DNA of 64,000 bases from Felis catus (Eukaryota). Both the position numbers and the translations under genes were made by a program. Under the pieces are notes generated by a model. The model had not been told where the DNA came from and did not search any database. It saw nothing but the letters and a program-made list of their open reading frames with translations. Location of the stretch: contig NC_058369.1 of NCBI RefSeq assembly GCF_018350175.1, positions 620,001 through 684,000 on the forward strand, in the 5' to 3' direction. How positions within the stretch are numbered: the stretch's first letter is position 1; each line of letters starts with the position of its first letter. Shown here piece after piece: positions 18,812-58,444 of this stretch.

Positions 18812-19810
18812 CCCGTCTCATCCAGGTGCCACGGCCCAGGTCCTCAGTCTTCCCGCCGACTGCTGGCCCACGTCTGCTGCCCAGAAAGGCCACCACCACA
18901 CCCTCCTTGCCGACTGCCCCTCAGGAATCCAGGGGTCCTGGAGGGCCATGGCTGGGGGACAGCAGGGACTGGGGACTGGCCTTCCCCTCATGGCCAGTGA
19001 ACACGGCCTCTCATTGACTTTGCAGCCCTGTGCCGAGCCCCCTCCCCGGGCCTCGGGAGGAGGGAGAGCGCCGGCACGCGGGCCCCGCGGGAAGCCCCTG
19101 CCATGCACTTTACGTTCAGACTACTGGTCCTCGCCCCACCCCGACTTCTTTTTACTCTGCTCCACGTTAGCGCCTCCCACACCTAGTGATGTGTTCAGAC
19201 AAACCACAGCCACAGCCACAGCCGGAGCCAGTAGAAGAACAGGGCCGTCAACCAAGATGCATGCCCAGAGCCCAAGGGAGCCAGGCGGCTGCCTTGTCTT
19301 TGTTGTTTGGTTGGTTCCTTTTCCTTTTTCTAAGAAAAAATAAAGCAGGTGGATTTGAGCTGGTTGTGAAGGGTGTTTGGGAACTGTTGGGTGGTCCTCT
19401 CGTGGGCTTCACAGCCCGGGGGGCTGGCAGGTGGCCGGGTGGTGGGAACTGGGGCTCCCGAGGGGGTCTATCTTTGGCCACGCTGGACAGGAGTCCCCTC
19501 GGTGGTGACCGGTCTCCCCAAAGCTCCCCGGGGCCCTCGGCTCCCCAGTGCAGCAGCCGGGGGGCCTGATCGCAGGACCCTGTCTTTCCAAGTTCTCTGT
19601 GCCCCTGGGTCCCCAGAGAAAACCCGAACCAAAAGCAAGAGTGTGCAGTAAATATTTATAATCAACCAGAAAACAAACACAAGAAACTCCCATCACTGGA
19701 TGGTACACAGACGGCACGAAGCTCCGAGGGGAGGGGCGGGGTGGGGCGACTCAGCCGCAGGCGAGGGCTGCCCCATCTTTTGGCAATAAATAAAGCTTGG
19801 GAAACTTGAA
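18812..19810 (+). other. STK11: STK11 non-coding last exon (3'UTR)
   Basis: Donor CAG|GTAGGC at 17995, 16 nt after the stop; acceptor cccgtctgcAG at 18810-18811; AATAAA at 19339-19344 and 19785-19790. The 3' end is approximate. Confidence 0.75.
19785..19794 (+). terminator. STK11: STK11 polyadenylation signal (AATAAATAAA)
   Basis: Overlapping AATAAA hexamers followed by GT-rich sequence (tttgggttttgtgtct). Confidence 0.8.
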
Positions 19811-19958: not shown

Positions 19959-19964
19959 TTTATT
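19959..19964 (-). terminator. CBARP: CBARP polyadenylation signal
   Basis: TTTATT on + (AATAAA on -), about 690 nt past the CBARP stop. Confidence 0.75.
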
Positions 19965-20652: not shown

Positions 20653-23600
20653 TTAGGCAGGGCTGTGGTCGGGAGACGTGGGCGCGGCGGCGGCCAGCGT
20701 GGGAGCGGTGGCGATGGGCTGGGCGAGGCGCGGCGGGAAGAGTCTGTCATCGAGGCCAGCCGCCAGCTTGTCCAGCAGCGTCCCCGGGGGCCCGACGCAC
20801 AGGCCCGAGCCGGGGCAGGTGCTGCTGCCACCGCCGGGCTCCTCCTCGATGACCGGGATGGCGGGCGCGGTCGGTTCGTCGCCCGCGCGGCCCTCTGGGG
20901 GGCAGTCGACGCTGTCGCCTCGGCGCAGAGGCGCGCGCGTGGGGCGGGAGTCGGCCCCAAAAGGGGCCGCGGGCGGGGCAGGGGTCGTGGCGCGCGCGCC
21001 GGGGTCGCTGTGCTGCCGGCCGCGCTGCTGCCACTGCTTGCGCGTGTGGGGGTGCGCGCGCACGCGATGGCGCGTGGCGCTGGGCAGCGTGTCGTCGAAG
21101 TGCGGGTCGTGGCGCAGGAACTCGTGGAAGAGGGCATCTGTCTTCTCGTCAATGCTGTAGTCGCGGCGCGGGGCGCGGCGGGGCCAGGCGCGCGGGCTGC
21201 GGGGTCGGACGGGCGCCTCGGTGGGCGCCGGCGCCCCCTCGAAACTGGTGCCCACAGTGGCCGTGCGGCCGGCGCTGGTGAAGGAAGAGCGCTTCTCGGA
21301 CGCGCTGAGGAGCCCGTCCTCGCCGGCGCCGCGGCCCTCAATGCTGGCGTAGCCGCTGTCCATCTGCAACAGCTTCCGCGGACCTCCCGCCTCGCTGTCT
21401 GCCGGCCGGGGGGTGGGGGGCGGCGAGGGCGGTGGGAAAGTGGGCACGGTGGTCCCGGAGCCCGAGCCCGAGCTGTCGCCGCTGCGCACCGAGTCGCGGT
21501 CGTTGCCACTGCTGCTGTGGTCCGAGGCGGCAGCCGCGTGCAGCTCAAGAGAGGCTCGCAGGCTCCAGATATCCCGGTAGGTGGTCTGGGCCTGCTCTGG
21601 CCCCGAGTCCCGCTCACCATCAGATTCCTGCTGCAGCTCAGGCCCCGCACCACCACTGCGCTCGGGGGGAGACTCGGGGCTCGCTCCTCCCGCGGCGCCC
21701 GCCTCCTCCGCTGCCTCTAGCCTGCAAGCCAGGCCGCAGCAGTCAAGAAGGCTGTGCGCGCCCCTGCGTGTTCTCCCCAGCCACCCTGCCTCTGGGTCCG
21801 GAAGGGTGGGCGCCGGTGGGGACCCCCTAGGCTCGGCCAGGCTCTGCGGAGAGCGGATTTTAAGAAAATGCTGGCGGTCCCTGTTACAGGGGGTGGTTTC
21901 TGGATAAACCCCAAGCCTTCCTGGCACCTGCCTTTCAATCGTGGCTTTTTTTTTTTTTTTTTTTTCTTCAGTATCTGACCCAAGCACCTGCTGGCGTTGC
22001 AGGTGGCTGGCGCCTCATCCACAGAGTCAACATTCCCCTGTGGCGCTCCCCTCTTCCTAACACCTCAGCGGAGAAGGAAGTGGCTGGGATGGACGGGGCC
22101 AGGCGGGGAGTCCAGCTCGGCCCCTACTCCCCAGCGGGACTACTCAGGCAGCTTCACCACCCCAGTACCTCCGTCTGTGGGGCTGGGGGAGGGGGTGCTG
22201 CGGGCAGAAGCAGCCACAATTTCTGAGAAGGGGCCATCCAGCCTTCAGGAACATGGGCAGGAAGGAAGGGGCACCAGGCCACAGTGGACCCCTCGGGGCC
22301 GTGGACTCTAGCAGGAAGCAGTAACATCCAAGCAGGCACCCGCCCCTGGCAGCCCTGCCTGGGCAGGCGTCCTGTCCTGGGGACCCTGTGGCCATCGTCC
22401 AGGGCCCCACCTGCCCCTCTGCCCTTACCCAGTCTCCCCCAGTTTCCCTCTTCTGGTCCTTGCTGGAGAGGTGGCCCCAGTGAGGCAGTCTCCAGGAGGG
22501 ACGATGGAGCTGGAAGAATGGGATATGTCTGCAGGGTGGGGAAAGCCCTCCCCAGGCCACTTAGCGGGGGACTGGGTGGGGCAGGGGCCCACAGGTCCAC
22601 CCCTGACGCTTCTATCCACTACAAAATACCTGCCGAGAGCGGGGGATGGGCTGGCGGGGCTGGCCAGAAAGGGACGGGGGGGCGGGAAGGCCACCGTGTC
22701 GCCTGCGCTGGCGATGTACTGGATGAAGTCCATGTGGGGGGCGTCCCCCTCCTCCTGCTCGGTGCTCTCGCTGGCTGCCCGCTGCCGCTGGAAGTGGTGC
22801 CGCTTGGGGGAGCCTGTGCAGAGGAAGGCGCGTCAGCCTGCCCGAGTCCCTCCCGGCCCCGGGCCGCAAGGAGCCGCCTGGGTCAGGGGTGCGCTGAGGT
22901 GCCGCGGCGGTAGCGGGACCCCCAAGCAGCTCCGGCCACGAGAGCAAGGCCGGAGCAGGTCTGCACTGGGCACCTGGAGGCGGGCGCCGCTGAGCCAAGA
23001 GGCAGAAGCCGGGACACGTGGGAGGACGAGGGACAGGCTGGCTGGGGCCGCTGGGGGGAGAGAGGGGAGGCCTCTTCTGCCAGCTCGACCTCCACCCACG
23101 GGCCCCCTGGAGGGCCTAGGCGAAGCTCTGGTGGGAAAGGGAGGGGGACAGTCACCCGGCAAACAGGCCCCAGGCACTTGCACACCTATGCCTGGCTCTA
23201 ATCACCCTCGGGGGCCACGGGCTCCGTCTCAGCTCCCGACGGCAGTGCAGTAGGCCGCCTTCCCCGCCCAGGAGCGCCTCGGCCAGAACTCGCTCCTCCT
23301 TCCCCTGCAGCGCTAGCTGGCACCAGGCCCCGACGAGGGGCTTGTGCTCTCTCCTTAGCTCTCCTGACCCCAGGACCCCCCACCTCCACAGGGCCGCCTG
23401 TCCCGTCCTGTCCCGGCCCAGCTCCCTTGGGCACGGGCCTGTTGGTACCCGCCGCTCAGGGTGGCCACCTCCCCACCCCGACACGTGCTCCTGCTCTGGG
23501 CTGACGATAAGAAGGCCCTATAGCCAGGGCTCCACGTGACCAGAGGCCTACAGGAGGCAAGAGCTGCCGCGTTAGTTCAGGGGTGGGTGCGCTACGGCTC

Positions 23601-37759: not shown

Positions 37760-37890
37760 NNNNNNNNNNNNNNNNNNNNNNNNNNNNNNNNNNNNNNNNN
37801 NNNNNNNNNNNNNNNNNNNNNNNNNNNNNNNNNNNNNNNNNNNNNNNNNNNNNNNNNNNNNNNNNNNNNNNNNNNNNNNNNNNNNNNNNN
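37760..37890. other. Assembly gap (N run)
   Basis: 131 N at the MIDN 5' end. Confidence 1.
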
Positions 37891-46915: not shown

Positions 46916-47064
46916 NNNNNNNNNNNNNNNNNNNNNNNNNNNNNNNNNNNNNNNNNNNNNNNNNNNNNNNNNNNNNNNNNNNNNNNNNNNNNNNNNNNNN
47001 NNNNNNNNNNNNNNNNNNNNNNNNNNNNNNNNNNNNNNNNNNNNNNNNNNNNNNNNNNNNNNNN
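46916..47064. other. Assembly gap (N run)
   Basis: 149 N. Confidence 1.
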
Positions 47065-58312: not shown

Positions 58313-58444
58313 NNNNNNNNNNNNNNNNNNNNNNNNNNNNNNNNNNNNNNNNNNNNNNNNNNNNNNNNNNNNNNNNNNNNNNNNNNNNNNNNNNNNNNNN
58401 NNNNNNNNNNNNNNNNNNNNNNNNNNNNNNNNNNNNNNNNNNNN
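58313..58444. other. Assembly gap (N run)
   Basis: 132 N. Confidence 1.

Follow-up and report, generated by a model that had tools for sequence, protein, structure and literature searches.

What is made when transcripts of CBARP read past the normal donor of its last coding-region intron, and has any part of that product been conserved? The question arises in the window, the whole 64,000-nt stretch of Felis catus DNA that was analysed. A first-pass annotation had answered it with a conserved switch among three proteins, selected by a stop codon that overlaps a second donor. The results below bear out the gene structure on which that answer was built and point to a different and much shorter conserved segment.

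The CBARP gene and the donors of its last intron

Cat CBARP is encoded on the minus strand by nine coding exons, which together give a protein of 740 aa, and the stretch is single-copy in the genome (G000). Judged by its translation, the gene is the orthologue of CBARP/BARP. The N-glycosylation sequon, the one transmembrane stretch and domains I and II match the BARP described in the available part of PMC4003244, so far as that text covers them, with the same gene, the same topology and both Cav-beta-binding motifs in register. Exon 8 together with the extension is identical to Felis catus XP_044898623.1 (100% over 128 aa). A local Pfam search returned 0 families for 5/5 proteins, although PF27937 is precomputed for CBARP matches. 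The homologue search yielded 173 proteins among 809 candidates, and the best 120 of the 173 were used. The coding exons and the last intron are as follows.

26427-26329, 26235-26096, 25865-25801, 25456-25312, 25107-24936, minus strand: coding exons 1-5
24756-24619, 24212-24002, 22813-22630, 21721-20653, minus strand: coding exons 6-9
22630..22813, minus strand: coding exon 8, 184 nt, with a phase-2 boundary after ...LGR
21722..22629, minus strand: intron 8, the last coding-region intron, 908 nt, with an A20 tract from 21965
20653..21721, minus strand: last coding exon, 355 codons plus stop

Intron 8 has two donors of the same phase, 201 nt apart, and the frame between them is open in cat.

22624..22632, minus strand: normal (proximal) donor CAG/GTATTT, phase 2, GT from 22629, with middling U1 pairing
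22423..22431, minus strand: distal donor TGG/GTAAGG, GT from 22428, which holds the read-through TAA (22427-22425)
22429..22629, minus strand: extension of 201 nt, 67 codons, in frame in cat
22429..22509, minus strand: in-frame cassette of 81 nt between an internal acceptor and the distal donor, a fourth form found in felid RefSeq models

The geometry given by the first-pass annotation is correct: the frame stays open for 67 codons past 22629 and ends in a TAA inside a donor of the same phase, so that the sizes of 740 aa (normal splicing), 807 aa (distal splicing) and 452 aa (without splicing) all hold. All three outcomes are present among public gene models. The human entry of about 453 aa, which the first-pass annotation had cited, exists as NP_689982.3 (isoform 2, 453 aa, C-terminus GKQGETG), both an NP_ record and a UniProt isoform. 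Human XP_016882045.1 (773 aa) has a 68-residue in-frame insert, and the +67/+68 forms exist as RefSeq models; in 24 models, all of them predicted XP entries, the distal donor is joined in frame to the acceptor of the last exon. These two human entries and cat XP_044898623.1 use the same donors with the same outcomes as the window. XP models are predictions, and for many read-through entries the source is gene prediction from genomic sequence and not a transcript. The alternative-donor and retention event is real and already annotated: the three isoforms are in the databases and the overlap of stop and donor is no new mechanism. The 81-nt cassette, whose internal acceptor came up in an acceptor scan, is used in six felid models (P0019, P0020, P0123, P0129, P0131 and P0132), and a Plecturocebus model uses another internal acceptor in intron 8.

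Donors were scored by a crude U1 duplex energy, and on this scale the distal donor reaches -9.7 kcal/mol versus -7.2 kcal/mol for the normal one, the seven other annotated donors of the gene ranging from -5.7 to -11.1 kcal/mol; a third GT at 22410 scores -10.8. In the acceptor region of the last exon (21755-21722, minus strand), a branch-like TTCTTGAC lies about 22 nt upstream and the pyrimidine tract is poor, which may contribute to a slow excision of intron 8. The deep conservation of the donor and the branch-like motif without a pyrimidine tract suggested a U12-type intron, which was rejected. The U12-type donor consensus has CC at +5/+6, and TT is found here. Neither AATAAA nor ATTAAA occurs in intron 8 as an intronic polyadenylation signal. 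A run of 20 A bases inside the intron (21965-21946, minus strand) could prime oligo-dT and so mimic a short transcript end.

The length of the extension and the position of its stop were compared with 5000 dinucleotide shuffles of 500 intron bases. An open frame of the extension's length arose in 15.6% of them, a first stop inside G/GTRAG in 3.6%, and such a stop together with an open frame of that length in 0.5%. In the gene's seven remaining introns, the read-through is 31 (no stop), 43, 46, 0, 51, 61 and 88 codons long. A read-through of 67 codons is thus of ordinary length for this gene, and the in-frame distal donor is modestly non-random. The overlap of stop and donor does not stand as a designed feature, since in a phase-2 donor the G closes a codon, so that any donor of the form GTAA, GTAG or GTGA places TAA, TAG or TGA directly after it. 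The constitutive donor of exon 4 likewise contains an in-frame stop. The same rule is described in the available part of PMC2911113, where phase-2 donors (GTGAGT/GTAAGT) carry the same automatic stop as the CBARP TAA; in that case, a yeast, the stop directs transcripts with retained introns to NMD, whereas the CBARP intron is the last one and has no downstream junction.

CBARP/BARP literature and database searches found nothing on the function or regulation of human isoform 2. PMC4003244, as far as available, reports one transcript of about 3 kb and a mouse protein of 698 aa; no splice variant appears in its main text, from which the strings 'splic' and 'variant' are absent, or in its supplement file 2. 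The available parts of PMC4468383 and PMC12992490 do not mention a splice form of CBARP. Among the papers listed for CBARP, BARP or C19orf26 and for intron retention, none deals with a CBARP splice form by title or start of abstract, and the supplementary tables of splicing screens may list the event.

The read-through frame across mammals

The census covered 356 proteins, 106 of which have a read-through beginning with Y; the entries are redundant and should be read as lineages. These 106 comprise 24 entries with in-frame splicing (13 from felids, 11 from the human cluster), 25 that stop at the donor, 29 that are shifted and 28 others. All 29 shifted entries still show the distal donor, as GKG or DW[VA]R, so that across mammals the donor is read in three frames (ETG-stop, GKG and DWVR). 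The frame is intact up to the donor in felids, Suricata, pinnipeds, apes, macaques, gelada and narwhal. It is shifted or stopped early in Equus asinus, Marmota, Aotus, Trachypithecus, Hipposideros, Hippopotamus, Otolemur and Propithecus, and is also broken in bat-like, muroid-like, bovid-like and pig-like entries, with a shift after eight codons and a stop at 21 in the bovid-like ones. Most of the frameshifts lie at one C-rich run near codon 20, and whales are back in frame through a different deletion. Single shifts in the C run, for example that of Trachypithecus, could be assembly errors, but the pattern spans many genomes. Both bat entries that are in frame are doubtful: the Pteropus model carries a LOW QUALITY flag, and a look-alike with the same end of exon 8 is out of frame. 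Conservation of the 67-codon frame, which the first-pass annotation had claimed, is contradicted by frameshifts or early stops in many mammals. A search with the extension alone found 7 felid proteins among 37 candidates, and one with the shifted frame found 4 proteins among 296 candidates, all already in the set. In Hipposideros, all 11 of 11 cluster models (P0027 and P0177-P0186) carry about 140 intron-derived residues in frame from exon 8 to the last exon. The extension region is of low complexity.

We further compared codons 22-67 between cat and primates. Identity in the coding frame is 26/46, 27/45 and 26/46 (57-60%), and the same DNA read in the shifted frame gives 24/45 and 22/45 (49-53%). 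Other shifted entries range from 18/38 to 29/46, and the intron past the distal donor from 14/37 to 26/38, while the controls against human are at 51/57 (89%) for exon 8 and 36/44 (82%) for the start of the last exon. Under an assumed divergence of 0.3 substitutions per site, a neutral simulation gave identities of 0.56 and 0.57 (SD 0.07), and one at omega 0.5 gave 0.73 and 0.67. On these comparisons, codons 22-67 appear to diverge about like neutral DNA. The coding frame is slightly more alike than the shifted one, so the tail may be under weak constraint.

The first six read-through codons

The beginning of the extension behaves differently from its tail.

22611..22629, minus strand: first six read-through codons, YFVVDR in cat and YFSVD[R/K] in most other amniotes

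Among the 106 entries, which had been required to lead with Y and are redundant, the opening residues are YFS[VI]D[RKG] in 92, YFVV in 13 (felid) and YFSGD in 1; human CBARP reads YFSVD where cat reads YFVVD. In a wider sort of 232 anchored entries, 98 begin with Y, 108 are canonical, 5 are other and 21 are without anchor, and one oddly framed non-mammal entry in this sort (P0247) is without the YFSVD motif. A full-library search, from which the best 150 of 266 matches were taken, brought in bird and squamate entries: the read-throughs of Amazona collaria, Naja naja and Anolis carolinensis start with YFSVD[R/K], beyond which likeness is lost. The intron 8 read-through has an average identity of 0.81 over its first six residues (29 distinct rows). 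As controls, intron 7 with 42 rows and intron 5 with 41 rows reach 0.25 and 0.17; both controls include some mis-sorted spliced rows, and the query itself contained the motif. There is no in-frame GT in the first 16 read-through codons of cat, so the motif could be translated only by retention or by use of the distal site; a nearby conserved in-frame donor is absent in cat and none is visible in the compared models. The conservation of the six codons was seen at the protein level, at which an invariant RNA or DNA element would look alike. These data suggest a short amniote-wide constraint at the normal donor, missed by the first-pass annotation, which is worth a test.

In the Anolis and Naja models (P0226 and P0210), short extensions follow the YFSVDK read-through before it meets the last exon in frame, and the motif and the Cav-beta domains may coexist in squamates. 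A GATA- or MEF2-like DNA site was considered and set aside, the motifs being broken in cat or human. A pattern scan of metagenomes for vertebrate DNA gave 8 loci, 8/8 of them unrelated to CBARP on translation.

Joined to the end of exon 8, the read-through forms LGRYFSVD, which fits phi-X-R-X-X-S-phi (phi at -5, R at -3, S/T at 0, phi at +1), a pattern contained in the CaMKII consensus given in the available part of PMC9336311. The basic residue that the full consensus has at -8 is missing, and the L and R of LGR are also kept in the spliced and fish forms. Random intron bases complete the kinase motif in 0.24% of draws. The fit to the consensus was noticed after the fact. Rat BARP has four further RxxS[LIV][DE] motifs versus 0.15 expected in shuffles. 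Cat fails the motif, with V at position 0 in place of serine; felids have lost the serine, and the element in the cat window is probably degraded. It is a tentative idea that amniotes have kept, for about 300 million years, a candidate CaMKII-type site split by an exon-intron boundary. Skipping of the donor would create LGR/YFSVD and at the same time delete the Cav-beta tail, converting an inhibitor to a membrane-anchored kinase substrate or scaffold, and cats would have lost the site.

A proposed truncated BARP and the explanations of the read-through

BARP is a suppressor of voltage-gated calcium channels and of secretion, acting in neurons and islets. Both of its Cav-beta-binding domains map to the last exon; the edges of the domains were counted by hand, and the register of the domain I motif was checked on rat P0112.

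21520..21582, minus strand: Cav-beta-binding domain I (AID-like helix), mapped from mouse 422-442
21076..21192, minus strand: Cav-beta-binding domain II (LFHEFL), mapped from mouse 525-563

The AID-like helix had been placed in the last exon, which is where domain I lies, as does domain II, and retention of intron 8 therefore removes both. According to the available part of PMC4003244, mutation of both domains abolishes Cav-beta binding and recruitment. The proposed opposition of a channel-inhibiting and a non-binding form thus survives in one part, since a short form without both domains should not bind, and fails in the other, the conservation of the 67 codons. As intron 8 is the last one, the read-through stop has no downstream coding-region junction, and with retention the 3' UTR would grow from about 0.7 kb to 2.5 kb. 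Read in its two other frames, the cat last exon stops after 0 and 27 codons, so distal splicing in shifted lineages would likely truncate the protein too; with an early stop, as in the bovid-like entries, it might instead trigger NMD. From the compared sequences, the outcome common to the lineages is likely truncation with the conserved first hexapeptide, the long insert form not being common.

We consider it about an even chance that the last intron is leaky, with a second donor, and that its conserved output is a membrane-anchored truncated BARP that gains LGRYFSVD and is without the Cav-beta domains. Some transcripts would read past the normal donor of intron 8, and the product would keep the membrane anchor, gain the motif and lose both Cav-beta-binding domains. 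The tail after the motif would be a passenger that drifts in length and frame. Both retention and distal splicing would truncate in frame-shifted lineages, and the full-length +67/+68 form of cats and apes would be a lineage-specific accident of indels. Against this truncated-form reading stand the single transcript described in PMC4003244, a conservation seen at the protein level, the many gene predictions among the read-through entries, the loss of the serine in felids, the post hoc notice of the motif with its missing -8 residue and its L and R shared with other forms, and the possible weak constraint on the tail. A possible but clearly less probable explanation is that the conserved 18 nt act at the RNA level as a splicing element (e.g. 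a U-rich enhancer), with the distal donor as a competing or decoy site, which would tune the full-length mRNA and leave the truncated protein as a by-product. The 18 nt directly adjoin a middling normal donor, and the distal donor survives as a sequence even where the frame is lost (29 shifted entries). TIA proteins at U tracts 3' of 5' splice sites control alternative donors and retention (PMC2964331, as far as available), but the U run here covers only +4 to +8, outside the +10 to +28 zone of that work. The distal donor pairs with internal acceptors, as in the decoy exons of PMC6097662 (available part; SF3B1, OGT, ARGLU1), which likewise share an intron-internal donor, alternative acceptors and a leaky cassette. 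However, that class consists mostly of introns >1 kb, whereas CBARP intron 8 has 908 nt; here the donor is kept and the cassette body is not deeply conserved. An RNA element also predicts no kinase-motif match, which chance gives in only 0.24%. The GKG columns are not more conserved than some adjacent glycine/proline columns, and no long-range pairing partner of the conserved bases was found, the best (-18.6 kcal/mol) lying within the range of 20 shuffles.

Splicing noise combined with annotation, in which a GC-rich intron has a cryptic donor and an incompletely spliced human cDNA gave rise to the former reference protein, later projected onto other genomes, seems improbable. It fits the ordinary read-through length, the neutral-looking tail, the quality flag on the in-frame Pteropus model with its out-of-frame look-alike, and an A20 tract able to prime oligo-dT, but it cannot account for the persistence of six codons from squamates and birds to primates when the read-through of intron 7 has not persisted. 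We regard as slightly more improbable still the conserved three-way switch of the first-pass annotation, with the 67 codons as a functional insert or tail and the stop-donor overlap selecting among three proteins. The frame does reach the donor in felids, Suricata, pinnipeds, apes, macaques and narwhal, and 24 models are spliced in frame, with a joint chance of 0.5%. But all of these models come from felids or the human cluster, at least eight named genera have lost the frame, and whales hold it via a different indel; codons 22-67 are 57-60% identical between cat and primates versus 89% in exon 8 and 82% at the start of the last exon, and at phase 2 the overlap is automatic. If the conserved truncated form is made, channel inhibition would be lower than total CBARP expression suggests, and a cloned human isoform of 453 aa would have no activity toward Cav-beta.

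Elsewhere in the window, in exon 5 (25107-24936, minus strand), the second half is read in another frame (RSSPSTSATWVK...) in RefSeq models, rejoining inside exon 6. This alternate frame is found in cat and several other laurasiatherians, and its sequence makes a dual-frame isoform possible. Intron 1 (26328-26236, minus strand) is a stop-free, phase-0 intron of 93 nt whose retention would add 31 residues to the extracellular N-terminus. Three runs of N (37760-37890, 46916-47064 and 58313-58444) are far from intron 8. The sole minus-strand AATAAA below the gene, at 19964, faces a plus-strand AATAAA at 19785, about 180 nt apart, and this pair likely marks the convergent ends of CBARP and STK11, a neighbour named in the available part of PMC4003244.
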